Source: an uncultured virus (IMG/VR IMGVR_UViG_3300020125_000260)
Taxonomy: Duplodnaviria; Heunggongvirae; Uroviricota; Caudoviricetes
IMG/VR virus record: IMGVR_UViG_3300020125_000260
Reading direction: 5' to 3' (one strand)
Length of the DNA stretch: 20,000 nucleotides
Made by a program: the position numbers and the translations under genes. Positions within the stretch are counted from its first letter, which is position 1, and every line of letters starts with the position of its first letter. Shown in pieces: positions 5,404 through 18,966 of the stretch. Under the pieces are notes generated by a model. The model did not search any database. It was given only the letters and a program-made list of their open reading frames with translations, and was not told the DNA's origin.

Positions 5404-5852
5404 TGGGCAGCTACATCGACACAGCGGCAACCACTACCATCAACAATACACAGGTCACGGCGGCGGGAATGGCAGCCAACAGCGGAATGGTCAGCTACAC
5501 CGCCGGGCCACTGGACGGAACCACGCTGAACGCGACGCTGAACATCTTCACCACCAGCAACGGGCTGAACTTCTATCCCACGCATCTGATTGTCACCGCA
5601 ACCGCCACCTCCGGAGCGTTCATCAGCGCGGCATCTATCTCCCTCGGTGCTGGAGGCTCAACCTCCAACCTGCTGGCCGCGACTCCGCTTGTAGGAGTCA
5701 ATGCCGCTGGGCTGTATCTCGTGATTCCACTGCCGCTGGTGGCTACCCGCGTGGCCAATGGAGCGACCATAACCGCCAAGATCACCACCGCCGTGGTGGG
5801 ACTCACTCAGCTATCACTCCAGGTGACGGTCGTGGGATTCTATGCGGCGTGA
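5403..5852 (+). CDS. Thr/Ala-rich beta virion protein B2 (candidate fibre/decoration), about 149 aa
   Basis: TGATG coupling with A2 and SD GGGAGG at 5392-5397; almost charge-free beta-strand composition. Confidence 0.55.
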   Translation: MGSYIDTAATTTINNTQVTAAGMAANSGMVSYTAGPLDGTTLNATLNIFTTSNGLNFYPTHLIVTATATSGAFISAASISLGAGGSTSNLLAATPLVGVNAAGLYLVIPLPLVATRVANGATITAKITTAVVGLTQLSLQVTVVGFYAA

Positions 5853-5864
5853 TTCGATGAATCA

Positions 5865-5894
5865 TTGACACAGCCATCCCGCGCGTGGTTCCCT
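5865..5894 (+). promoter_or_regulatory. Possible promoter upstream of the basic-protein/scaffold/capsid block
   Basis: Perfect TTGACA at 5865-5870 in one of the few intergenic gaps; TG-n-TTCCCT as a weak extended -10 at an 18-nt spacing; downstream ATG 5904 has no SD. Confidence 0.3.
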
Positions 5895-5903
5895 GTACAC
5901 GAG

Positions 5904-6071
5904 ATGGCAAAGTATCCACCGAAGGCGGCAATCGAGCGCGCGGGACACGAGATGAAGGTCAATCCGCCGAAGCAACTGGCGAAGACCGCCAAGAAATTCG
6001 GGGCCGCCGATGCTAAGAAGCAGCGAGTGGCGATCATGTTGAGCAAGGCACGTAAATCATCAGGAGGATAA
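5904..6071 (+). CDS. Small Lys-rich protein (55 aa), DUF6496-like
   Basis: 'KKQRVAIMLSKARKS' resembles the QAIAIALSxAR motif of small basic phage proteins; ATG 5904 is preferred over TTG 5865. Confidence 0.55.
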   Translation: MAKYPPKAAIERAGHEMKVNPPKQLAKTAKKFGAADAKKQRVAIMLSKARKSSGG

Positions 6072-6076
6072 CTCAG

Positions 6077-6223
6077 ATGGCATTCGGCAAAGGTGGCAAG
6101 GGCGGAGGCAAGAAATTCGGCAAGTCTGGCGGCTCAATGGGTGGCAAGGGCCTCAGCAAGGCCGGCGGGATGATCGCAACCGGGTCGAACGTGAAGGCGC
6201 TTGGCTCGAAGAAAGCTGGCTGA
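6077..6223 (+). CDS. Gly/Lys-rich micro-protein (48 aa), absent from the ORF track
   Basis: SD AGGAGG at 6062-6067; translation MAFGKGGKGGGKKFGKSGGSMGGKGLSKAGGMIATGSNVKALGSKKAG*; TGATG coupling to 6223. Confidence 0.7.
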   Translation: MAFGKGGKGGGKKFGKSGGSMGGKGLSKAGGMIATGSNVKALGSKKAG

Positions 6224-6555
6224 TGGCATCTCCACTGACAGGCCCGCCCCCGCAACCGACTCCGGTCGGCCAGCCGGGCAGTGCATCGCAACCGCCGCCG
6301 GGAGTCAATCCCTCCGCCGCGGGAGGCGATCAATCCCTCCAGCTGGTGACGCAGCACCTGATGGAGGCGGAGCAGGCCCTCCAGGCCGCAGCCAAGATCA
6401 AGCCGGAACTATCCGCGATCGTGGACAAGTTCGTGAACGAAGTGAAGCCCCAGGCCGGACAGATCCTGTTCGGCGCTGGACAACAGCCACAGATGCAGCC
6501 CCAGCCATCGCTCCAAGGCTTAGTTGCGGGCGGAGCGCAAGGGATGGGCCAGTGA
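6223..6555 (+). CDS. Pro/Gln-rich hypothetical protein (110 aa) with a central helical hairpin
   Basis: TGATG coupling; disordered P/Q-rich ends flank 'LQLVTQHLMEAEQALQAAAKIKPELSAIVDKFVNEV'. Confidence 0.65.
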   Translation: MASPLTGPPPQPTPVGQPGSASQPPPGVNPSAAGGDQSLQLVTQHLMEAEQALQAAAKIKPELSAIVDKFVNEVKPQAGQILFGAGQQPQMQPQPSLQGLVAGGAQGMGQ

Positions 6556-6643
6556 CCACCATCAGCCACATAACCCCTCAATCTCGCGAGGAGCGACCTC
6601 GGACTAACCCTCCGACAGCGCAGAAGGCGACAAGGAGAACACC

Positions 6644-7414
6644 GTGGGACTGAACGAAGATGTAGCAGCATATGCGCAGGAGCTGGCGGACGCAGCCGGG
6701 ATCACCGATGCGACCGCACGCGAGGCGTTCATCAAAAACGACAAGGTACAAGCCAAGGTCAGGACTTCGCTCGAAGCCGTTAGTCGCGAGAAGGGCCGGG
6801 CCGAGGCGGAGTTCAAAAAGCGGCAGGAGGAGTATGCCGCCAACCTGAAGATCGCCGAGTCTAACGCGGCAGTGGTTACCGCAGCCGAGGCCAAGGTGAA
6901 AGCCTATGTGGAGAAGTTCGGAGAACTCCCAGGTGGGGGTGATCCTAACAATCCAACCGCAGCCCGTGCCGCCGTGGCCGACGCCATCGACAAGAAGACC
7001 TTCGACGAGCGGTTCAAATCCACCGAGGCTAACACCATCGGACTAGTGAAGATCGCCAGCAAGATCACGGCGACACACCTGAAGGACTTCAACGAGGTTC
7101 CGGACTTCGATGCGATTGAGAAGATCGCCACCGAACAGGGACTTTCAGCTGACAAGGCCTATCAGGAGTATCGCAAGCCAAAAGACGAGGAACGCGCCAA
7201 GGCCCGGCAGACTGAGGAGTTGAAGAAGGCTCGCGAGGAAGGCGAGATGGAAGGCCGCTCCAAGGTCGCCGCCGCAGTGATCTCCGACCCGGAGCGTAGT
7301 TCTCCATTCATGCAGAACCTGCGCAAGTCCGGCGAGGTCAAAGAAGGCCCGCGTGACTCGTTTGTGAAAGGCTGGCGCGAGGCCGCACAGCCCAAGGGTG
7401 GCGGAGCAGCGTAA
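6644..7414 (+). CDS. Capsid scaffolding protein (256 aa)
   Basis: SD AAGGAG before GTG; highly charged A/E/K coiled-coil; immediately upstream of the major capsid gene; short C-terminal amphipathic helix (RDSFVKGWREA). Confidence 0.7.
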   Translation: MGLNEDVAAYAQELADAAGITDATAREAFIKNDKVQAKVRTSLEAVSREKGRAEAEFKKRQEEYAANLKIAESNAAVVTAAEAKVKAYVEKFGELPGGGDPNNPTAARAAVADAIDKKTFDERFKSTEANTIGLVKIASKITATHLKDFNEVPDFDAIEKIATEQGLSADKAYQEYRKPKDEERAKARQTEELKKAREEGEMEGRSKVAAAVISDPERSSPFMQNLRKSGEVKEGPRDSFVKGWREAAQPKGGGAA

Positions 7415-7462
7415 GGCACGAGCCGCGCTTCCATCATCCCAGCAATACCCCGGTGAACTACC

Positions 7463-8566
7463 GTGGCAGAACTCGATCAGATAAATCTCAGCACCCGACG
7501 CTACATTCGGGACAACCCCAAGCTGGTAGACAACGTATTTCAGAACGACCCTCTGCTGGCCTACCTCAAGCTCAACCTGCGCCAAGACTGGGACGGCGGC
7601 TCTCTTATTCAGGAGAACTTCGTCTACCGTAACCTGATCGGAGGCGGCTACCAGAAGGGTAAGACCTTCGATGGCTCCGAGCGTCAGGTCGAGCAGGGCT
7701 TTCAGATCATCCCCAAGACCTTCCAGGTGGGCGTGACCCTCGCCAAAGAGGACATCCAAGTCTTCAACCGTGGCGAACTCGCAGCCTTCAAGCTGGTGGA
7801 CTCTCGCATGACCACTGCCTACATGACCATGGGCGCATTCCTGGCCATCGGGCAGTACCTCAACGGGCAGGCGAACTTTATCGCCAACCTCAACGGCCTA
7901 GCGGAAATCTGCTCCGACGGCACCAACAATGGCTTCGACGGCGCCACCTACCTGACCTACGGAGGCATCACCCGCGGCGGCCAGACGCTCAATGCGCTAA
8001 AGTCCCCGCCGATTAATGTCAACGGGACCATCGAGTACAATGTGCTGGAGGAATCCTATGGCAACACTTCCTTCGGCAACATCGAGGCTAATCTCGGGGT
8101 GACCACTGTTCTCGGTTACTCCTTCATCAAGGAGAAGTTCCAGACCCAGCAGCGGTTCAACGACACCCAAGACCCAGCCATCGGATTCAACGGGCTGAAG
8201 TTCAACTCCGCGACGCTGATCAAGTCCCGCTACTGCCCTGGCACTGGCTCGGGCGGTTCCGCATCCGCCGACGGGATCGCTACCGCCGGCACCGACGCCA
8301 ACCTCGTGGCCGTGGACTTCCTTCAGCAGACCACCAACGGACTGGTGAACGCATATCCCACCGTGACCGGCGAGACGCTGTTCTGGGTTCAGGCGCGTGA
8401 GCCGTTCCTGAACTTCTACGTGTCCACCGACGCGGAGTATGGCTTCGGCTTCACCGGATTCAAGCCACATCAGCTCAATACATCGCTCGTCGGGCAGGTG
8501 CTATTTGCCGGGAACCTGACCGGGCATCCGCGCTATCAGAAACAGTTATTCGGCATCACCGGATAG
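7463..8566 (+). CDS. Major capsid protein (HK97 fold; P22/SU10-like), 367 aa
   Basis: N-terminus 'LVDNVFQNDPLLAYLK...GGSLIQENFVY' and 'IGFNGLKFNSATLIKSRYCPG' match podovirus-type coat proteins; strongly C-ending codons; follows the scaffold. Confidence 0.85.
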   Translation: MAELDQINLSTRRYIRDNPKLVDNVFQNDPLLAYLKLNLRQDWDGGSLIQENFVYRNLIGGGYQKGKTFDGSERQVEQGFQIIPKTFQVGVTLAKEDIQVFNRGELAAFKLVDSRMTTAYMTMGAFLAIGQYLNGQANFIANLNGLAEICSDGTNNGFDGATYLTYGGITRGGQTLNALKSPPINVNGTIEYNVLEESYGNTSFGNIEANLGVTTVLGYSFIKEKFQTQQRFNDTQDPAIGFNGLKFNSATLIKSRYCPGTGSGGSASADGIATAGTDANLVAVDFLQQTTNGLVNAYPTVTGETLFWVQAREPFLNFYVSTDAEYGFGFTGFKPHQLNTSLVGQVLFAGNLTGHPRYQKQLFGITG

Positions 8567-8572
8567 CCAACC

Positions 8573-8586
8573 GCCTTCTCGAAGGC
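8573..8586 (+). promoter_or_regulatory. Small hairpin after the capsid stop (GCCTT-CTCG-AAGGC), possible mRNA stabiliser or attenuator
   Basis: Perfect 5-bp inverted repeat 6 nt after the TAG; no U-tract, so not a canonical intrinsic terminator. Confidence 0.3.
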
Positions 8587-8634
8587 AAGCACGACTGAGG
8601 CCCGGCGGGGCAGTAAACACGCAGAGGAGGCAAC

Positions 8635-9237
8635 ATGGCAAACATCAGGGTCATTCAATCGCCCTACATCGGGCCGTTCGCCAATATTGAAGCTGTCGTG
8701 GAGCCATCCACTGGCTCGGGCGTGGGCATCCACGTCGGGGAACTCGGTGGCCGCGTGGAACTCACACAGACCGGCGCGGGCACCAAGGAATACCAGAAAG
8801 TGCAGCTCGACTCCGGCGCAGTGGCAGCTACCGCGGCTGGCGCACCGACCACCAACCAGCTACTCTACTGGAAAAATAAGCAGACCTATACCGTGACCAA
8901 CGACTCCCGCTTCGCTATCGGTGGCCAGACCACGCACGGCTGGCGCAACGAAGTCGCGGGCGTGCTCGTCCAACCGCAGGCCGCACTCACCGCCCAGATT
9001 GGCCTCGCGCCGTATATCTGGATTCAACAGAAGGGCAACTGTGCGGCGGTGAAAATCGCTTCCGGTTCCCCGAACCCTGGTGACACGCTCATCTCCGACA
9101 CCTCAGCCACTGCCGCCGAGGGCCTGATTGCCACGGCCTCGACCGCACCGGTTGTCCTGCCGCTGGGCCGGTTCACCACCGTGGGCACGACCGTCACCGT
9201 AGCTCCAGTCGATCTGGACATCCCCGGAATCCCGTAG
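8635..9237 (+). CDS. Capsid cement/decoration protein (200 aa)
   Basis: SD GAGGAGG; directly after the MCP; beta-rich with 'GGRVELTQTGAGTKEYQKVQ' and 'YIWIQQKG' typical of post-capsid decoration proteins. Confidence 0.55.
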   Translation: MANIRVIQSPYIGPFANIEAVVEPSTGSGVGIHVGELGGRVELTQTGAGTKEYQKVQLDSGAVAATAAGAPTTNQLLYWKNKQTYTVTNDSRFAIGGQTTHGWRNEVAGVLVQPQAALTAQIGLAPYIWIQQKGNCAAVKIASGSPNPGDTLISDTSATAAEGLIATASTAPVVLPLGRFTTVGTTVTVAPVDLDIPGIP

Positions 9238-9249
9238 AGAGGAGGCACC

Positions 9250-9516
9250 ATGGCAGCAGTCACAGTAGTACGTCAACGCACGGTTGTCTTCGGCGACCGC
9301 AAGGTGAAGCTCCTGAACATTAACATCGCCAACACGGGAGATTCCTATGCGACCGCCAACTTCGCGCATTCGATTGACGCCGCGCTGGCCGATGCTTCCG
9401 GTACCACGGTGGTGAACACGCAGATCACCACCGCTGGAGGTCCTGGCCCGGTGGTGTTCAACTACGCCGGTGGCGGTGCGCAGAACAACGTCGATGTGAT
9501 GATCATCGGAAGGTGA
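9250..9516 (+). CDS. Small beta-rich structural protein (88 aa)
   Basis: SD GAGGAGG; V/T/A/N-rich; lies in the head-gene block. Confidence 0.6.
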   Translation: MAAVTVVRQRTVVFGDRKVKLLNINIANTGDSYATANFAHSIDAALADASGTTVVNTQITTAGGPGPVVFNYAGGGAQNNVDVMIIGR

Positions 9517-9519
9517 CCC

Positions 9520-10473
9520 ATCGCACTCGACACATATGACCGCATAGTTGATGCCCTCCTGCTCAGGTGCCCCCTGGCAGGAGGGCAGCTCGCTGAGCAG
9601 TTCATCAACTATGCCTTCCGCGACCTGATCGAGAAGCGCAAGTGGTCGTGGTCGATCTCGCAGTCGCAGTTCATCTTTCCTGCGGCGGTCACCGCTGGCA
9701 CCGTAACTGTCACCAACCAGTCGAATGCGGTCGTGGGCATTGGCACCGCGTGGAACGCCACAATGATTGGCCAGCAGTTCCGCACCTCCACGCTGACTCC
9801 GATCTACACGATTACCGCAGTGGGCAGTGCAACCACGCTCACGCTGGATCAGCCGTGGGGAGCGGCATCCGCCAGCGGGCAGGGATATAAGATTTACATC
9901 GCGTACCAGATCCCACCACTCGACTTCCATGCCTTCGTGTCTATCTGGGACCCGAACTTCAGTTGGTCACTCTGGAGTACGGTCTCACAGGCGGAACTAA
10001 ACACCTACGACGCCCAGCGAGCGTCGCAGGGAACTCCCTACGTGGTAGCGGACTTCGACTATACCTCCCTTGCGTTCGGCGGGGCTACCATCACTCCCGC
10101 GCTGCCACGGTTCGAGGTCTGGCCGCACCAACAAGCTGCATACGTAATCCCGTTCATGTATGAGCGCCGCTTCCCCGATCTGAACGACGCGACCGGGCAG
10201 CTCCCACGGTTCATCCCCGGCAATGTCCTGCTGGAGGGCGGCCTTGCAGCCTGCGCGCGCTGGCCGGGGCCGGACGCCGATCACCGCAATCCCTACTTCG
10301 GATTGACCTTGGCAGGGATGCATCAGGAGCGTTACGATAAGGCCGTGCGGGAGCTGGAGCGGAACGATGATGAAGTTTATGGGCGGGATGTGAATTACGG
10401 CATCCAAGACCTGCCGTTCTGTCCGTATCCTTTCCCAGTGAACGCTAGCTACTTGCAACTACACGCAATCTAG
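9520..10473 (+). CDS. Head-tail adaptor/ring protein 1 (about 317 aa) with an inserted beta domain; probable ATC start
   Basis: Frame is open from 9517 with no ATG/GTG/TTG until 9733, yet 9520-9732 encodes an adaptor-type N-terminus (ALDTYDRIVDALLLRCPLAGGQLAEQFINYAFRDLIEKRKWSW). SD-like GAAGGTGA lies just before ATC 9520. The C-terminal part has 'GTPYVVA...FEVWPH...YERRFPDL...LPRFIPGNVLLEG'. Confidence 0.7.
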   Translation: MALDTYDRIVDALLLRCPLAGGQLAEQFINYAFRDLIEKRKWSWSISQSQFIFPAAVTAGTVTVTNQSNAVVGIGTAWNATMIGQQFRTSTLTPIYTITAVGSATTLTLDQPWGAASASGQGYKIYIAYQIPPLDFHAFVSIWDPNFSWSLWSTVSQAELNTYDAQRASQGTPYVVADFDYTSLAFGGATITPALPRFEVWPHQQAAYVIPFMYERRFPDLNDATGQLPRFIPGNVLLEGGLAACARWPGPDADHRNPYFGLTLAGMHQERYDKAVRELERNDDEVYGRDVNYGIQDLPFCPYPFPVNASYLQLHAI

Positions 10474-10481
10474 GAGGAACC

Positions 10482-10676
10482 ATGAGCAAGATGATCAAGA
10501 CCGGAGTCAGCGATTATGGCATGAAGCCATCATGTGAGCCCTCAGGCAACGTTGTCACGGATGGAAAGATGACTACAGTCCCGGTGCCTTCGCGCACATC
10601 GGGGGCAAACTCCATCCCCGAGGTAACGCTCGATCAATCGGCAGGGCTGCCGAGCCGGAGCGGTGGCGGCAAGTGA
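10482..10676 (+). CDS. Small low-complexity hypothetical protein (64 aa)
   Basis: SD AGGAGG at good spacing; GTGA coupling to rmlB. Confidence 0.65.
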   Translation: MSKMIKTGVSDYGMKPSCEPSGNVVTDGKMTTVPVPSRTSGANSIPEVTLDQSAGLPSRSGGGK

Positions 10677-11725
10677 GCCGCGACACCGTATTAATCACTG
10701 GAGGTGCCGGTTTTGGAGGCTCTCATATATGCCAGCACATCCTCGACAATACCGACTGGGACGTGGTGGTTCTGGACCGCATCACCTACGCCGGCTCGCT
10801 CGAACGCCTGGTGGATGTCCGACGCGACTATCCAGACCGGCTGCGATTCGTATATCACGACTTTCGCAGTCAGTATCCCCCGAGCGTCCTGCACGCGCTA
10901 CGGGGGGTACGCTATGTCATCCACAACGGCGCGGAGACGCACGTAGCGCGGTCGCTGGAGTCGCCAGCCGTGTTCGTCGAGTCCAACGTCCTTGGCACGA
11001 TGCACACGCTGAACGCAGCCCGCGTGCTGGGAATCGATCACTTTATCTACGTCTCCACCGACGAGGTGCTGGGCGCCGCTCCCGAGGGCGTGGACTACGA
11101 TGAACTAGCGCAAGTGCAGCCGTCGAATCCCTATGCTGCGTCAAAGGCTGGCGGCGAGGCCCTGGCGTTCAGCTACTGGAAGGCGTTCAAGCTGCCGGTG
11201 ACGATCACTCGCACGATGAACCTCTTCGGCGAGCGTCAGCACCCGGAGAAGTTCGTTCCGATGACGATGCGGAAGCTAATGGCTGCGGAGCCGTTGACGA
11301 TTCACGGCGATGCGACCGGTCGCAGCGGCGCGAGGAAATGGCTGCATGCGAGGAACCAGGCGAGCGCGTTGCTGTTCCTTCTGCGCGAATGGGACTTGGT
11401 AAGCGGCCCCAAGAATGGTCCGCGTCCATTTGGAAAGACCTTCCACATCGCAGGCGAGGAGCACACCAACCTTGAAATCGCGGAGCTGATCGCTGACGAG
11501 CTAAAGACCGACTTCGCCTATGAGATCGTCGATTTCACTCTCGCTCGTCCGGGGCACGACTTCCGCTATAGCCTTGACGATTCCAAGCTCCGTTCCCTCG
11601 GCTGGTTCCCTCCCGTGCCGTTCGAGGAATCGCTCCGTCGCACGGTGGCATGGTCGGCCCGCGCAGAGAACCGCTACTGGCTGGAGGAGTCGCACGTCCC
11701 AGTAGCTACCCTGGCAGGAGGCTAA
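10673..11725 (+). CDS. rmlB: dTDP-glucose 4,6-dehydratase (extended SDR, RmlB/RfbB)
   Basis: VLITGGAGFGG NAD motif, DRITYAG, AETHV.RS, catalytic STDEV and YAASK (YxxxK), QHPEKFVP, RPGHDFRY; all RmlB signatures. Confidence 0.92.
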   Translation: MSRDTVLITGGAGFGGSHICQHILDNTDWDVVVLDRITYAGSLERLVDVRRDYPDRLRFVYHDFRSQYPPSVLHALRGVRYVIHNGAETHVARSLESPAVFVESNVLGTMHTLNAARVLGIDHFIYVSTDEVLGAAPEGVDYDELAQVQPSNPYAASKAGGEALAFSYWKAFKLPVTITRTMNLFGERQHPEKFVPMTMRKLMAAEPLTIHGDATGRSGARKWLHARNQASALLFLLREWDLVSGPKNGPRPFGKTFHIAGEEHTNLEIAELIADELKTDFAYEIVDFTLARPGHDFRYSLDDSKLRSLGWFPPVPFEESLRRTVAWSARAENRYWLEESHVPVATLAGG

Positions 11726-11728
11726 CCC

Positions 11729-13006
11729 TTGCAGCGAGTCACCATCTCGGCGGCGAAGGGGAACGTCCAAGTCAACACGGGTGGCCAGATTTCAACCACT
11801 CTCGTGGAAGGCTCATTCCCCGGTTGCACGGTATCCGTGTTTATTACTGGAACTACGAACCTCGTCCCGGCGATCTACGGTGATAATCTCAATCCCCCGA
11901 CGCCGAAGGCTAATCCGTTTACATCTGATCTGCAAACTGGATTTGCATTCTTCTATGCCCCCAACGGTACGCGATGCGACATCCAACTATCTGGCACTGG
12001 GATTACTACACCGTTCATTGTTGCAGCTGATGTTTTGGTGGATGATCCCTCACTCCTCGCGGTGCTGGCCCCGCAGACCGTGGCCTTCAACGCGACTCCC
12101 ACCTTTGATCTATCGCAGGCGAGCTGGTTCAAGATGACCCTCACTGGGAACGTGACTGGGCCGGTGTTCTTGAACCCCGTCGCTGGATCGATCCTCATCT
12201 TGTCGCTGGCGCAGAACGCCGCCGGCGGCTGGACGTTCGCGTTCCCCGCAGCGTTCATTGACCCTCCAGCGATTGCTGCTGGAGTGAACGCCCGCACGGA
12301 GTTGATATTCAAGTACGACGGTGTGAACTGGACGGCGGTCGCGGCGACTGGCGATAACCTCCAGGTTCCGGGTAGTGGGGCCATCATCGGAGCCTTGACC
12401 GTCGGCGGAGCCCTCGTCGTCACTGGGGCGATCACCGCCGGGAGCTTCACCAACAACCTCTCCGCGTTCGCAGCCACTACCTCGGCACAACTCGCGGGAA
12501 TCCTGACCGACGAGCAGGGCTCTGGGAGAGCGGTATTCGATACGTCGCCGACGCTGACGACTCCAAGTCTTATAGCCCCAGTCGTCCAAGGAATCATTAC
12601 CACTTACAACGCCTTTACCCTTGTAGGAAATGGCATTCCCGTGCTTGCACAGACGATCGATCTCACTGGGCAGACCGCCAACATTGGCTCGACGCAGCTA
12701 ATATCACTGGGGCCAGGCGGCGCGGGCATGTACCGAGTCAGCGTCTATGCCATCGTGACCTCGGTGGGAACGACCTCCACCCTCCCGGCAGTGAATGTCA
12801 TCTTCACCGACAGGAACAACAGCGTGTCGCAGACGATTGCCATCACTGCCACCAACACCGGAAACACGACAACCACACTGGCGCAGGGACAGGCGTTCAT
12901 CTCCGCCAAGGCCAGCACGGTCATCAGCTACTCCACGACGGGATACGCATCCACTGGCGCGGCGATGCAGTACGCGCTGCACATCAAACTGGAGCCGATG
13001 CTGTGA
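11729..13006 (+). CDS. Tail fibre/tailspike-like receptor-binding protein (425 aa)
   Basis: SD AGGAGG before TTG. N-terminal anchor 'TVSVFITGTTNL..IY.D.....ANPFTSD..G...FYA'; fibre module 'DLSQ....TLTGN...Q.AAGG.T..FP...F.YDG.NW'; 'DEQGSG.AVF.TSPTLTTP' motif; C-terminal C1q/TNF-like beta domain (GMYRVSVY). Confidence 0.75.
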   Translation: MQRVTISAAKGNVQVNTGGQISTTLVEGSFPGCTVSVFITGTTNLVPAIYGDNLNPPTPKANPFTSDLQTGFAFFYAPNGTRCDIQLSGTGITTPFIVAADVLVDDPSLLAVLAPQTVAFNATPTFDLSQASWFKMTLTGNVTGPVFLNPVAGSILILSLAQNAAGGWTFAFPAAFIDPPAIAAGVNARTELIFKYDGVNWTAVAATGDNLQVPGSGAIIGALTVGGALVVTGAITAGSFTNNLSAFAATTSAQLAGILTDEQGSGRAVFDTSPTLTTPSLIAPVVQGIITTYNAFTLVGNGIPVLAQTIDLTGQTANIGSTQLISLGPGGAGMYRVSVYAIVTSVGTTSTLPAVNVIFTDRNNSVSQTIAITATNTGNTTTTLAQGQAFISAKASTVISYSTTGYASTGAAMQYALHIKLEPML

Positions 13007-13010
13007 TGCG

Positions 13011-13178
13011 CTACTGGATGCAGAACATGTTGTTGGGCATTGACGGGCACGGAGTCGGAGTCGGCGTGGGAGTAGGAGTTGCTCGGGGTGGCGGGTCGTC
13101 CTGTGGCAACACACGCTGGGCGAGGACGACAAACGCGCTGGACAGCAGCAGGATAACAAGCAAGATGAGTTTTCTCAT
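13011..13178 (-). CDS. Small secreted Pro/Thr-rich peptide (55 aa), antisense to the operon
   Basis: Sec-type signal peptide MRKLILLVILLLSSAFVVLA|Q; mature part QRVLPQDDPPPRATPTPTPTPTPCPSMPNNMFCIQ; perfect TATAAT 10 nt upstream; fits between two + genes without overlap. Confidence 0.6.
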   Translation of the reverse strand: MRKLILLVILLLSSAFVVLAQRVLPQDDPPPRATPTPTPTPTPCPSMPNNMFCIQ

Positions 13179-13188
13179 GAGGCTAGTA

Positions 13189-13194
13189 ATTATA
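13189..13194 (-). promoter_or_regulatory. -10 element TATAAT (possibly part of a bidirectional promoter)
   Basis: AT island GTAATTATATAACACAAT in GC-rich DNA; minus strand reads TGTGTTA-TATAAT; plus strand has TATAAC at 13193-13198; no convincing -35. Confidence 0.5.
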
Positions 13195-13216
13195 TAACAC
13201 AATCTGGAGGTGGCTT

Positions 13217-13387
13217 ATGCCAATCAGCATGTTGTTCTGGTTTCTCTTCATCCTGTGGGTTCTCTTCGGAGGCTGGGTATATCAACCCACCGCTGGAAAC
13301 TGGCGGCCATTCGGCGGCCATCTCCTGCTGTGCCTGCTGATCTTCCTCCTTGGTTGGCATGTGTTTGGCTTCGTCATCAAGGGGTGA
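13217..13387 (+). CDS. Small two-TM membrane protein (56 aa), holin candidate; absent from the ORF track
   Basis: SD GGAGGT at 13206-13211; translation MPISMLFWFLFILWVLFGGWVYQPTAGNWRPFGGHLLLCLLIFLLGWHVFGFVIKG*. Confidence 0.7.
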   Translation: MPISMLFWFLFILWVLFGGWVYQPTAGNWRPFGGHLLLCLLIFLLGWHVFGFVIKG

Positions 13388-14642: not shown

Positions 14643-15356
14643 ATGGCCTATGTACAGGTCAATCGCGCACAGTTCCGGGCTCTGGTTCGCAACCAGCTTG
14701 GCAGCGGGGGGCTGGCCACATCGTTCTGGCGCGACACCGAGTTGAACTTCATCATCCAGGAGTCCCTTCGCTTCTATAACCTCCTTGTCGGCTACTGGAA
14801 GACCCGCGCCACTATCGTCACTACCGCAGCAACCGTCTGGTACTCCACCCCCAGCATCATCACCTCCGCGATGCGGGTCAGCTTCAACGGTTCCCCCCTG
14901 CGTGGGGAATCGCTCTACAACATGGATTTCGCACGCAGCGGGTGGGAGAGTGAAACCACCACCGACGGCGGCGATGTCCCCACGCGACCGCGCTATTTCG
15001 TCATCGGCGGACTCGCCAAGGTGGGCATCTGGCCAGCGGATGCGGTGGGAGGTAACTCCCTCGTGCTGGATGGTATCGCGGTGACGCCGCTGCTGACGAA
15101 CGACGCTTCAATCATCGACGTGGGACAGGAGGACATGAACCACCTGCTAGACCTCTGCCAGCATCTCGCGGCGTTCAAAGAAGGCGGGATGGAGTTCAAG
15201 AACTCGATGGCGGGATTTAAGTCCTTCCTCGAAGGCGCGGGGGAGCGCAATGCAATTTTAAAGCGGTGCGCGACCTACAAAAAGTGGTTGGGTCTCGATA
15301 CTGGAAGGCAGAAGCGACCGCTGAAAGCCGAGGCTGATGCCGTGGGAGCACGCTGA
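14643..15356 (+). CDS. Head-tail adaptor/ring protein 2 (237 aa)
   Basis: 'RAQFRALVRNQL...FWRDTELNFIIQES', 'PRYFVIGG...VGIWP', 'HLLDLCQHLAAFKEG': adaptor (tail tubular A-type) pattern. Confidence 0.7.
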   Translation: MAYVQVNRAQFRALVRNQLGSGGLATSFWRDTELNFIIQESLRFYNLLVGYWKTRATIVTTAATVWYSTPSIITSAMRVSFNGSPLRGESLYNMDFARSGWESETTTDGGDVPTRPRYFVIGGLAKVGIWPADAVGGNSLVLDGIAVTPLLTNDASIIDVGQEDMNHLLDLCQHLAAFKEGGMEFKNSMAGFKSFLEGAGERNAILKRCATYKKWLGLDTGRQKRPLKAEADAVGAR

Positions 15357-16072
15357 TGGCATGGACTATATTAGATACGAAGCCATCGTGGAATGTTACT
15401 GATCTGGAGATATTGAAACGGATCACATATTATCTCTTGGAGAACGGCGACGCCGACGCGACCGGAACCACGCTGATGACCACGCAGTTCGGCATTCAAG
15501 AGATGCTGGATAATAGCAACCTGATTCAGCGGCGGTTCCTCCGTGACTGCGCTCCAGTGACGCTGCGTGCGACGCAAGGCTCCACTCCGGGGCAGAACCG
15601 CTATGCTCTCCCGCCTGACTGGATACACACTCGCAGGATGACATGGCAGGCGCAACCTGCTGGCTCCAAAGCCAAGACCCTGATCCCAACCGACAGCTAT
15701 TCCCTCGACCGGGGCGCGTCCGACTGGGAGCAGAACACCGGCACACCGCGATACTACAACGAAGGCTCCAACCTTCCCACGTTGGAGTTCGACCTCGCAC
15801 CCACGCCATCGCAGGCTGGCACGATGGGACTTGGCTATGTCCCGCAGCCGCCGACGCTGACTGGTGCAGGAGTGTCGCTGATGGTTCCCGACGAGGCTGA
15901 GTCCGCGATCATCTATGGCACGATAGGAGAGTTGTTAAGTTCAGAAGGGGAAGGATTTGACGCTGACCGCGCGGAGTACTGCGAGCAACGCTATTCCCTC
16001 TGCGTCGAGATGGCCAATGCGCTGATACTCGGGTCGCCCGATCCACCGCAGCAGCCGGGAGGTCAGCAGTAA
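15356..16072 (+). CDS. Head-tail adaptor/ring protein 3 (238 aa)
   Basis: TGATG coupling; 'GQNRYALPPDWI', 'GTPRYY', 'LAPTPSQAGT...YVPQPPTL', 'VPDEAESAIIYG'. Confidence 0.75.
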   Translation: MAWTILDTKPSWNVTDLEILKRITYYLLENGDADATGTTLMTTQFGIQEMLDNSNLIQRRFLRDCAPVTLRATQGSTPGQNRYALPPDWIHTRRMTWQAQPAGSKAKTLIPTDSYSLDRGASDWEQNTGTPRYYNEGSNLPTLEFDLAPTPSQAGTMGLGYVPQPPTLTGAGVSLMVPDEAESAIIYGTIGELLSSEGEGFDADRAEYCEQRYSLCVEMANALILGSPDPPQQPGGQQ

Positions 16073-18966
16073 TGGGCGATATCTATGAACATGATAATAA
16101 GAAGTTCAGTGATGCTGGACTCCAGTTGCGTGTGCCTCCAGATTTGGTTCCGTCGGGACAATTCTCAAAGCTGACCAATGCGATTCCAATTATTGAAGGT
16201 AGGTTAGAGGCCCGCGCTGCCCTTCGTTGGATCGTCAACGTCCCCAATGTGACCTCTCCCGGCAGTGGTCTGCACTCGTTGATGCGGCTGAATCAGTCCA
16301 ACGTCGCTGGCCTCTCCGACCGCATCGCCGGAATCGACACTACCGTCCAGACCTACACCCTACCCTCCGGTGCGACCCCCACCCAGCGCGATACCGTCCG
16401 CACGGGCGACCCGCTCTCCCTCGCCAGCTTCCACTACGCCAACGATGTCTCCGCCTGGGCCATCATTGCCGACCGCAATGGGATGAAGAAATACAAGGGC
16501 GACCCTTCAGGCGGGGTGTATTTCAACCTTGGCGGCCTCGGAACCAACCTCTTGAAGCTGCCCTGTGTGGCCACTGCTGGCGCAGCTGGCAACCTCAACA
16601 ACGGCGCTGGCCCCGGCTACGACTGGGTGGCCACCTATGTCAACACCCAGACCCTCACCGAGACCAATCCCACGCTGCCGAACTATACCGGCAGCATCAA
16701 CACTGCGGCGACTACGGTGGTGACCTCCCCCGATCCCGGATTCGGCGGTGCGGCTGGCACGGGTCTCGGAGTCGATGGCCAGGCGGTACTAGTTGGCAAC
16801 TCCGCAACCGAGTCTCGCCAGTCCGTGCTATTCACCACCATGGGAGCCCTCACCTCCCCATTCATCTACGCCCAGATGAACCTCAGTGTGAACTTCATCT
16901 CCACCGGCGGCAACCTCGGTGGCTGTGGCTACGGCGCGCTCTACATGTCGCTCGACGGGGGCACCACATGGAAGCTGCTGATCGATTCATCAGTGAGCCT
17001 CGACCACGGCGGCGCGGGAGCCAGCAGCCAGCTATTCGTCAACTTCCCTCCCAACCAGGACATGACCCGTGTCCAGTTCCGTGCCGTGGCCCTCGGGGTG
17101 GGAGACACCACCGTCCCGCAGAACGTCACCGCCCGGCGCATCCGCCAGCGCGGGGGCAACCTCAACCTATCGGGACTGCTAACCGGCGGTGGCGGCAACG
17201 CAACCATGACGCTGATCCTCGGCTCGTCCCTCGCGTCCACGGTAACCGCCGGGGCGACCGTCGTGACCCTCGCGCTGGTCAACCAGAAAGGCGTGGTCTG
17301 CGTCCCGGCACCGAGCGATCCACAATACGACGCGATTAACCTCTACCGCCGCGGTGGATCGGTCACCGCATCATGGGCCTTCGTCGGCCAGTTCACCGTG
17401 GCGTCGCTGGCCATCGGCGGCTGCGGCGTGGGAACGCTCCAGATCACCGATAACGTAGCCGATGCCAACCTCGGAGGGTTCGTAAACTTCGGCAACGACG
17501 CGCCGGCGGCGAGCGTCTACGTGCTGAACCGCCCACTGCCCTACGTATGGGGGCCAGCGTTCAATCCCTCGCGGCTGCTGGCCTGTGGGGACTGGGATCG
17601 TCCGGACGCGGTGTATTTCTCCAACCCGGGGAACGCCGACCAGTGGGGCGTAGGGCAGTGGGTGGACGTGTCATCTCCCACCGACCCGATGCAGAACGGC
17701 TGTGTGTTCAACACTCGTGTGTTCGCATTCTCCAAGGAGAAGATGTATGAGCTGATCCCATCGCTGATCGGCGGCACGACTATCACGCCATTCCAGACGC
17801 CCTGCTCGCGGGGGCTGATATCGCCGTGGGGCCTGATCTCCACCGCGAGGATGATCTACTTCGTAGCCAAGGATGGCATCTACTCTACCACCGGCGGGGA
17901 GGAGACCTCGCTCGTGGAGAACGACATCAAACCACTGTTCCCGACGCTGGACAATCCCCTCGGCCGCTCGGTCGAGGGCTATGACCCGGTGAATATGGAG
18001 CGCATCGAAGACATCCGCTTGCGATTCCACAATGACGAACTCTGGTTCATCTATCGCGGCACGAACGAGGGCCAGCTCAACACGCTGGTGTACGACCAGA
18101 ACAAGAAACGCTGGCGGGCAGCGAAGTATCCGGTGAATATCACCACGGTCTACTCCGAGGAGGCCGGGCCAGCCAGCTCCCTCCTGCTGGGTGATTCCAG
18201 CGGTAGTCTCTACTCCACGCAGTCGGGCACCGGCGACGTGTTGCAAGCCTCCACGCAGGACATCGCTGTGACTATCCGCACCGGGGCCTATGATCAAGGG
18301 TTGCCTCTGAACCAGAAGGAATACGGTAACGTTCTATTCGATATCGACCCTGGCGGAGCCACAATCGCCAAGCCCATCATAATCACTCCCTTGCTGAACG
18401 GCGAGGCAATCACCAGCGCGGCGATCACGGTCACCGGGACTGGACGCCAGCAGGTTCCGCTCACGCTGGGTGACGTGTTCGGGTTCAATATCGAATATCA
18501 AATCACCTTCGTGTGTAACTCGACTATTAACCCCGTGCTATACCAGTTCGACACCCTCTGGCGCACAGAACCAGCAGCGGTGACCCACTGGGAAGCGCGC
18601 GAGACCTCCCACGGTCAAATTGGCTGGCAGCATCTCCGCGACGCCAATATCGCCATCCGCAGCACCTCGGCGGTGGTGCTGACGCTGACCTTCGACAGCA
18701 CGGTGACACAGACCTACACGCTGCCGTCCACCGTCGGAGCGCGGCAGAAGCTCTATGTCCCGTTCCATGCGAACAAGTTCAAGCTGGTGCGCTACTCTCT
18801 GGACTCCAGCGACCCCACGCAGCCGTTTCGCCTCTACTCCAGCGATCTTGAAGTCCGCGTGAAACCCTGGGTGACACAGCTCGGCTACACCATTGTGAAG
18901 CCGGTCGGTGAGGAATCATCGCAGGCACCGGAAGCCCTCGCTAGTGAACTCTTGGGAGGTAAATAA
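16072..18966 (+). CDS. Tail nozzle (tail tubular B / P22 gp10-like beta-propeller) with a large insertion, 964 aa
   Basis: TAATG coupling; follows the adaptors. Propeller motifs 'PDAVYFSNPGNADQW', 'RGLISPWGL', 'IYFVAKDGIYSTTGG', 'TLVYDQNKKRW', 'IRTGAYDQG.PLNQKEY'. Confidence 0.75.
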   Translation: MGDIYEHDNKKFSDAGLQLRVPPDLVPSGQFSKLTNAIPIIEGRLEARAALRWIVNVPNVTSPGSGLHSLMRLNQSNVAGLSDRIAGIDTTVQTYTLPSGATPTQRDTVRTGDPLSLASFHYANDVSAWAIIADRNGMKKYKGDPSGGVYFNLGGLGTNLLKLPCVATAGAAGNLNNGAGPGYDWVATYVNTQTLTETNPTLPNYTGSINTAATTVVTSPDPGFGGAAGTGLGVDGQAVLVGNSATESRQSVLFTTMGALTSPFIYAQMNLSVNFISTGGNLGGCGYGALYMSLDGGTTWKLLIDSSVSLDHGGAGASSQLFVNFPPNQDMTRVQFRAVALGVGDTTVPQNVTARRIRQRGGNLNLSGLLTGGGGNATMTLILGSSLASTVTAGATVVTLALVNQKGVVCVPAPSDPQYDAINLYRRGGSVTASWAFVGQFTVASLAIGGCGVGTLQITDNVADANLGGFVNFGNDAPAASVYVLNRPLPYVWGPAFNPSRLLACGDWDRPDAVYFSNPGNADQWGVGQWVDVSSPTDPMQNGCVFNTRVFAFSKEKMYELIPSLIGGTTITPFQTPCSRGLISPWGLISTARMIYFVAKDGIYSTTGGEETSLVENDIKPLFPTLDNPLGRSVEGYDPVNMERIEDIRLRFHNDELWFIYRGTNEGQLNTLVYDQNKKRWRAAKYPVNITTVYSEEAGPASSLLLGDSSGSLYSTQSGTGDVLQASTQDIAVTIRTGAYDQGLPLNQKEYGNVLFDIDPGGATIAKPIIITPLLNGEAITSAAITVTGTGRQQVPLTLGDVFGFNIEYQITFVCNSTINPVLYQFDTLWRTEPAAVTHWEARETSHGQIGWQHLRDANIAIRSTSAVVLTLTFDSTVTQTYTLPSTVGARQKLYVPFHANKFKLVRYSLDSSDPTQPFRLYSSDLEVRVKPWVTQLGYTIVKPVGEESSQAPEALASELLGGK

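Follow-up and report, generated by a model that had tools for sequence, protein, structure and literature searches.

A small family of viral loop peptides, predicted to be exported and sharing a naturally minimised core, encoded opposite the virion genes of a probable Acidobacteriota phage

A 55-codon open reading frame (ORF) on the minus strand of an uncultured soil phage is, judged from its homologues, a real gene, and its product belongs to a small undescribed family of viral loop peptides that are predicted to be exported and have a naturally minimised core; the kind to which they belong, small exported phage accessory proteins, is already known. The ORF lies in the window, the 20,000-nt stretch analysed here, which comprises bases 45,158–65,157 of a 65,157-nt virus record that is rated 100% complete and whose ends nearly repeat each other. 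A literature search returned no description of such a peptide; the supplements of small-protein catalogues could list the family without a function. No significant match for the peptide was found in Pfam, PHROG, NCBIfam, or PDB, and no Rfam match at its locus. The peptide is absent from the protein collection, in which the adjoining 56-aa protein is on record, and no RNA dataset holding the region was listed.

The ORF runs from an ATG at 13178–13176 to a stop codon at 13013–13011. An initial annotation had placed the gene at 13011..13202; the gene itself is supported, but its end at 13202, which corresponds to an upstream in-frame TTG and takes in the promoter region, is not, as the relatives start at a Met matching 13178. 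The sequence was also re-read for the other features that had been described, and the 20-aa signal peptide, Gln21, the (TP)5 stretch, both cysteines, and the TATAAT hexamer are all present. Residues 1–20 have the anatomy of a signal peptide, with an MRK start, a best 10-residue hydropathy of 3.52, and Val-Leu-Ala preceding Gln21, and the predicted mature peptide would comprise 35 aa (~3.85 kDa). Cys44 and Cys53 are the only cysteines in the 55 aa, and residues 1–43 contain none. AlphaFold, run on five sequences, modelled only the signal helix (pTM 0.31); the mature part was coil (pLDDT ~60), with no defined loop shape. The positions of the gene, its parts, and its neighbours are listed in Table 1.

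Table 1. Features of the peptide locus in the window
Feature	Position	Strand	Basis
Coding sequence, 55 aa plus stop (P0003)	13011..13178	-	Homology; synonymous differences in close relative
Predicted Sec/SPase I signal peptide, residues 1-20	13119..13178	-	Anatomy, hydropathy; character kept, sequence variable in relatives
Predicted mature N-terminal leader Gln21-Asp28, possible pyroglutamate	13095..13118	-	Q-R-x-L-P in 4/4 stalked members
(Thr-Pro)5 stalk, residues 34-43, apparently dispensable spacer	13050..13079	-	Sequence; variable or absent in relatives
Conserved C-terminal loop Cys44-Cys53 plus Ile-Gln, likely binding element	13014..13049	-	7 positions invariant in 6/6 members
TATAAT, candidate -10 box, no -35 box	13189..13194	-	Motif scan; unchanged in close relative
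Upstream convergent neighbour, 425-aa virion protein, probably tail fibre	11729..13006	+	Weak PHROG 6002 match, E 0.0012; N-terminal part common to related phages
Divergent neighbour, 56-aa two-helix membrane protein	13217..13387	+	Occurs without peptide gene in relatives
Shadow ORF, 63 aa, probably not a gene	13006..13197	+	3/4 differences non-synonymous; frame broken in L123

The peptide gene occupies the sole internal gap of more than 100 nt between + strand genes of the window, a gap of 210 nt that extends from the fibre-like gene to the 56-aa membrane gene; to this extent the layout agrees with the initial annotation, which had called it the only credible minus-strand gene. A filter for a signal plus two cysteines was passed by 1 of the 531 short Met-started ORFs of the genome and by none in 60 Markov-simulated genomes, a weak statistic, as the filter was set after the peptide had been seen. 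Homology is the stronger proof that the ORF is a gene. A phmmer search of 1.84 billion representatives returned four proteins at E ≤ 0.001, including three full-length relatives of 56–61 aa (P0004, P0005, and P0006; E 3e-9 to 2e-5). All three have a divergent but typical signal, a small residue, Gln-Arg-x-Leu-Pro, a Pro/Thr stalk, and the terminal motif C-P-x-x-P-x-N-N-x-F-C-x-Gln. Their source contigs are 1.5–2.0 kb long, and they may not be viral. Small residues precede the conserved Gln in four members, and the sequences suggest signal cleavage in the four stalked ones.

The opposite strand holds the 63-aa shadow ORF, which, as the initial annotation had cautioned, exists and shares its third codon positions with the peptide gene. 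That this ORF is the gene, or that neither frame is, and that the peptide is an antisense by-product is scarcely credible. The shadow ORF is TGATG-coupled to the fibre gene, the wobble positions are common to both frames, and a crude gene caller chose it; codon usage, at −0.3 for the peptide frame vs −2.3 for the shadow, did not favour the peptide frame. Nevertheless, the minus-frame anatomy is kept in five relatives, and the antisense frame that matches the shadow ORF is interrupted by stops in L123, one of the viral contigs described below. We also compared the region with contigs of a close relative from one soil run (~96–97% identity, parts of the region covered, single contigs at depth 2–3). 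Both of the listed differences in the peptide coding sequence are silent, whereas three of the four in the shadow ORF change the + product, in a single contig at depth 2; one further difference on this contig lies outside the listed set. All five differences listed in the fibre gene on contigs of the same run are silent. Searches with the shadow protein itself covered Pfam, PHROG, and an exact look-up in the protein collection, from which it is absent, as is the peptide. Conservation of the + frame among homologues had been named as an outcome that would speak against the peptide; the relatives keep the minus frame, not the + frame, which bears out the earlier description of an independently placed accessory gene for a predicted exported peptide with two conserved cysteines.

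The TATAAT hexamer reads from 13194 to 13189, 10 nt separating its end from the ATG, and no SD is present. The window has no other copy, and the genome has eight in all, both strands counted. A two-hexamer promoter scan listed nothing on the minus strand at the peptide gene, the −10 box having no −35 partner. The first T of the hexamer lies 16 nt before the ATG; the corresponding distance from the −10 first T to the start is ~12 nt in typical leaderless genes, a class that accounts for ~13% of the genes of three Acidobacteria genomes (PMC3160421). The implied leader is thus very short, ~4–6 nt. In the close relative, at depth 2, no change is listed in the hexamer and two between it and the ATG. 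Neither a stable hairpin at the 3′ end of the gene (z 0.37) nor a convincing repeat or insertion scar around it was found.

DNA pattern scans for the loop extended the family. Four scans gave 168 matches (104, 19, 30, and 15), many of which repeat the same few antisense matches arising by chance; only two of the 168 combine a Met and a hydrophobic leader with a stop codon directly behind the loop. These two, encoded by L123 (37 aa) and L129 (41 aa), have no Gln leader and no TP stalk; each has an SD and is packed in a run of small genes. Outside the residues fixed by the pattern, they agree in R, I, L, K, and the position of the stop, and one of them is independently on record as a called protein. 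Their terminal motif is C-P-x-x-P-(I)-N-N-x-F-C-x-[QK]. The residues C, P, P, N, N, F, and C are invariant in all six members, these seven positions being fixed by the search pattern in the two pattern-found ones. The C-x8-C loop of the initial annotation is correct for the window's peptide and fails as a family pattern, being one residue shorter than the C-x9-C spacing of the other five members; the constant element is the last 12–14 residues. Since nothing but a hydrophobic leader and the terminal motif persists in the stalkless members, the C-terminal loop is likely the functional part, and the PT stalk and N-terminal Gln, absent from two of the six members, appear dispensable. The L129 member has neither a basic N-terminus nor a clear cleavage site and may be membrane-anchored.

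In 13 of 401 Acidobacteriota genomes, 16 weak matches were found; they fall on signal and Pro/Thr-rich stretches in longer frames that do not have the loop; most of these stretches are N-terminal, and many start with Gln. Such leaders on loop-free host secreted proteins indicate that the Gln and PT stalk represent a host-style leader and not a signature of the family. As a separate observation, Gln followed by a Pro/Thr-rich linker seems to come directly after the signal in many secreted proteins of Acidobacteriota genomes (L186–L201); together with the glutaminyl cyclase of 13 of 41 genomes (see below), this may point to a Q-rule beyond the Bacteroidota.

Apart from the two pattern-found members, no further ones emerged. 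With the four scans above included, viral pattern scans gave no match, 30 matches with one real member, 15 with none real, and 5 with none real; genome scans gave 104 with none real (flanks short for 24), no match, and 11 with none real; a metagenome scan gave 19 with one real member. The pattern matches L117 and L127 were rejected as chance antisense, and protein-guided locus scans returned Pro/Thr-repeat artefacts (L001 and L006) and nothing in genomes or metagenomes. Word-index homologue searches, the first two of which scored 8000 candidates, found no further members; an Atlas search with the peptide gave no useful match (best 0.78), and a tblastn search of cultured phages and plasmids, run with the low-complexity filter on and weak for short queries, gave none. 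Tunturi 1 contains no match to the peptide. We rejected P0007 (210 aa), the fourth of the phmmer proteins, as a member, as its profile alignment covers the leader and stalk only (residues 1–43) and its two-cysteine resemblance is by eye; it was not found in 201 host-class genomes. P0007 and P0008 represent a 210-aa exported protein that has a lipobox-like Cys17, the same Gln/Pro-Thr leader as the peptide, two cysteines in a C-x11-C arrangement that loosely recalls the loop, and an unassigned C-terminal domain.

Three carriers have sequence context. L123 is a 13-kb contig (13,394 bases) with a ParB-like gene and a 281-aa protein with viral Atlas neighbours. This protein (5814–10738 region) falls among unnamed viral clusters, and the nearest named family is that of P2 capsid domains (double jelly-roll), at a lead-level score of 0.77, on which the assignment of L123 to a probably tailless virus rests. 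L123 also has a 32% match to a record labelled Inoviridae sp. in the cultured-phage collection. L129 is a 50-kb tailed phage with portal and terminase genes (45% GC), whose host is deduced solely from shared accessory genes; among its small genes are a retroviral-type aspartyl protease domain (12525–12905) and an FtsK-like protein (15390–16613). The peptide gene lies opposite the virion-gene strand in all three viruses, a weak pattern that a coin toss would give 1 time in 8. The two tailed carriers share a few accessory genes, and no further gene is common to all three, L123 having been compared over 10,947 of its 13,394 bases.

The + strand of the window encodes a portal-like gene, a major head protein, two SU10-type adaptors, and the fibre-like gene, which give the phage a podovirus-like look; the replication genes (a family A polymerase and two helicases) map to the minus strand, beyond the window. 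The host is probably a member of the Acidobacteriota. Among cultured phages, the head protein matches only Tunturiibacter phages Tunturi 1 and 2 (26% identity), which are 63-kb podoviruses (PMC11924767). Of its three relatives in genome collections (56–58%), two are contigs binned with Ca. Sulfotelmatobacter and a third with Binatia, binning being no proof of host. The slot after the fibre-like gene (window 13007–13216) is hypervariable: it is empty in L003 and holds an 81-aa gene in L002, a pair of small genes in L004, and a 181-aa gene in L005. The peptide gene was not found in any of four related phage records with the 56-aa neighbour (86–89% identity; completeness 94, 94, 66, and 70%). The 56-aa protein itself, which has no family match, is 86–89% identical in phages of 41–57% GC and 38% identical in L175, unusually conserved for an accessory gene; in G773, a dissimilar short hydrophobic ORF occupies the analogous place after the fibre-like gene.

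We give about even weight, for and against, to a reading by analogy with known systems, in which the peptide acts early as an effector in the periplasm and its disulfide loop binds a host envelope protein that is conserved. The gene, read as a mobile accessory of viruses, would be transcribed by host RNA polymerase from its own −10 box soon after infection; the pre-peptide would be exported through Sec and cut by signal peptidase I before Gln21; and the periplasmic oxidation system would close the Cys44–Cys53 disulfide. The resulting 10–11-residue loop, with its invariant P-x-x-P, N-N, and F, would then bind a conserved extracytoplasmic host protein, the leader and stalk acting just as export handle and spacer. 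The likeliest purposes would be superinfection exclusion, shutting out later-arriving viruses, or dampening an envelope sensor or stress response while the cell is infected. The same loop is retained in different viruses that have no partner gene in common, which makes a host-encoded target most likely, and in a two-membrane host the product would more likely stay in the periplasm than leave the cell. Among the roles offered by the initial annotation, receptor blocker or exclusion factor would be the leading option; since tailed and tailless viruses need not share a receptor, classical receptor blocking is weakened.

The likely hosts probably can oxidise and cyclise such a peptide. In the sampled order, VKOR is encoded by 27 of 41 genomes (25 of 39 without G419 and G421, two genomes flagged as unpublished) and a clear glutaminyl cyclase by 13 of 41 (G419 and G421 not among them), whereas DsbB, in only 1 of 41, counts against. 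G419 and G421 are also among the negatives of the 401-genome loop-pattern search described below, and no claim depends on them. Pyroglutamate on Gln21 is an extrapolation, since the Q-rule paper makes no mention of Acidobacteria (PMC5837995).

Three known systems resemble the periplasmic effector that we propose. Spackle (gp61.3) of T4 is an early, periplasmic, disulfide-bonded exclusion protein (PMC7677548), and the likeness consists of a cleaved export signal, a periplasmic location, one disulfide, early expression, and an envelope-level target, each of them predicted for the peptide. In contrast, the 75 aa of Spackle form a helical bundle, which inhibits the tail lysozyme of the phage itself, the peptide has 35 aa and no predicted fold, no PHROG, Pfam, or PDB match links the two, and the low-confidence model has no helix in the mature part. 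T5 Llp, which binds FhuA from the periplasm, and Cor-type proteins are likewise small phage accessory proteins that act from the periplasm on a host envelope protein (PMC9586334); however, they are lipoproteins with a lipid-bearing Cys1, whereas the peptide has no lipobox Cys, and its presence in the carriers is not linked to a receptor-binding gene. MgrB has an N-terminal hydrophobic helix and a C-terminal periplasmic two-cysteine loop (C28–C39) that acts on PhoQ and is essential for function (PMC10576120). The 37- and 41-aa members resemble it in architecture, and its uncleaved-helix layout may fit the L129 member; MgrB is, however, chromosomal, uncleaved, and C-x10-C, while four members of the peptide family look cleaved, and no Pfam or NCBIfam match to the MgrB profile was found.

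It is doubtful, though conceivable, that a 12–13-residue disulfide-closed peptide is passed between tailed and tailless soil Acidobacteriota viruses and either imitates a peptide signal or envelope sensor of the host or blocks it. The related reading, in which the loop mimics or antagonises a secreted cysteine-loop peptide of Acidobacteriota, occupies a membrane or TPR receptor, and alters the infected cell or its neighbours, is unlikely. The precursor layout of signal, variable spacer, and conserved C-terminal core would suit it, as would the same core in different viruses without a viral receptor, yet no host copy of the loop emerged. The pattern occurs in 0 of 401 order-level genomes; at the phylum level, 11 matches in 10 of 401 genomes compare with 14 for a reversed control, and none has a signal peptide; and in class genomes, 17 of 391 matched at E ≤ 0.05, about the chance expectation, with no signal peptide in any of the 16 re-read. 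The host samples overlap and consist mostly of incomplete genomes; in the genomes searched, the sequences point to no host chromosomal copy.

A role in lysis, in which the periplasmic peptide restrains a muralytic enzyme or holin in the manner of Spackle or an antiholin, possibly together with the 56-aa membrane protein, is distinctly improbable. Consistent with such a role, the gene lies in the late region beside the two-helix membrane gene, that block is near lysis genes in relatives, and Spackle inhibits its tail lysozyme from the periplasm (PMC7677548). However, the 56-aa gene occurs without the peptide gene in all four related records, the peptide occurs in the L129 phage with no clear homologue of the 56-aa protein, and the peptide genes of L123 and L129 are not among late genes. 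No endolysin or holin was recognised in the whole record by Pfam, PHROG, or tblastn with the lysis genes of L002, L003, and Tunturi 1, and no lytic gene is common to the three carriers. Outer-membrane spanins of the Rz1 type have a lipoprotein signal and a linked inner spanin gene; the peptide has no lipobox Cys, and no linked gene is conserved across carriers.

A diffusible phage-to-phage signal of the arbitrium type, deciding between lysis and lysogeny, is very unlikely, and the sequence evidence places the peptide outside the arbitrium/RRNPP group. To act in this way, a 3.8-kDa peptide has to cross the outer membrane. Like AimP and RRNPP propeptides, the peptide is a small, predicted Sec-type precursor with a conserved C-terminal part, and it matches two of the five RRNPP criteria, the second only probably (PMC10075063): its 55 aa fall within the propeptide length of 10–100 aa, and its signal anatomy fits by hydropathy and cleavage-site residues. 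L123, moreover, encodes a ParB-like protein and might be temperate. Against this reading, the search for a TPR/RRNPP-type receptor elsewhere in the genome, which the initial annotation had proposed, detected none: TPR_12, as a marker of the 250–500-aa receptor, has no match in either complete carrier (control 14 of 14), and no TPR family occurs among the 59 + 23 ORFs scanned. The adjoining genes are instead those for the 425-aa virion protein and the 56-aa membrane protein, with different small genes in L123 and L129. Tyrosine integrase and resolvase also have no match in either complete carrier, with working controls, a result that applies to integrase-type and not plasmid-type lysogeny. Furthermore, the likely host has two membranes, the peptide has a cysteine loop, and the core is nearly the same across viruses and not diversified into virus-specific forms. 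The arbitrium or lysogeny reading that had been raised for this gene is therefore not supported. The remaining probability goes to roles outside those considered here.

Natural deletions have cut the family down to a synthesizable 13-residue core. Virus-host biology has received little study in Acidobacteriota, a phylum abundant in soil. If this core binds one of their conserved envelope proteins, it would point to a host factor whose blockage benefits each of the different viruses. Should mimicry or blocking of a host signal prove true, viruses would be manipulating peptide signalling in a two-membrane phylum through a single minimal ligand that is shared across virus lineages; as one more exclusion moron, the gene would be of moderate value, as a new small family and a minimal inhibitor scaffold. 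Cultured Acidobacteriota hosts and phages now exist (PMC11924767), which makes a test cheap.

The whole record (G000) showed further features of note. A block at C1:5796–14788 holds five glycosyltransferase-like genes, two methyltransferases, a B12 radical SAM enzyme, and an epimerase, and a second epimerase lies inside the structural module (window 10673–11725); together they possibly serve glycosylation of the virion, the DNA, or the host surface. A lipoprotein-like gene is located at 15280–15687 on the minus strand. The probable terminase large subunit, called by position and look and not by family match, seems split at C1:42706–45598 into 422-aa and 304-aa ORFs with small genes between them, one of which (43980–44300) is on the opposite strand and has a weak tail-protein match. 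The ends of the record (1–150 and 65008–65157) overlap with several mismatches and possibly come from different strains, and a GNAT-like gene spans the overlap.
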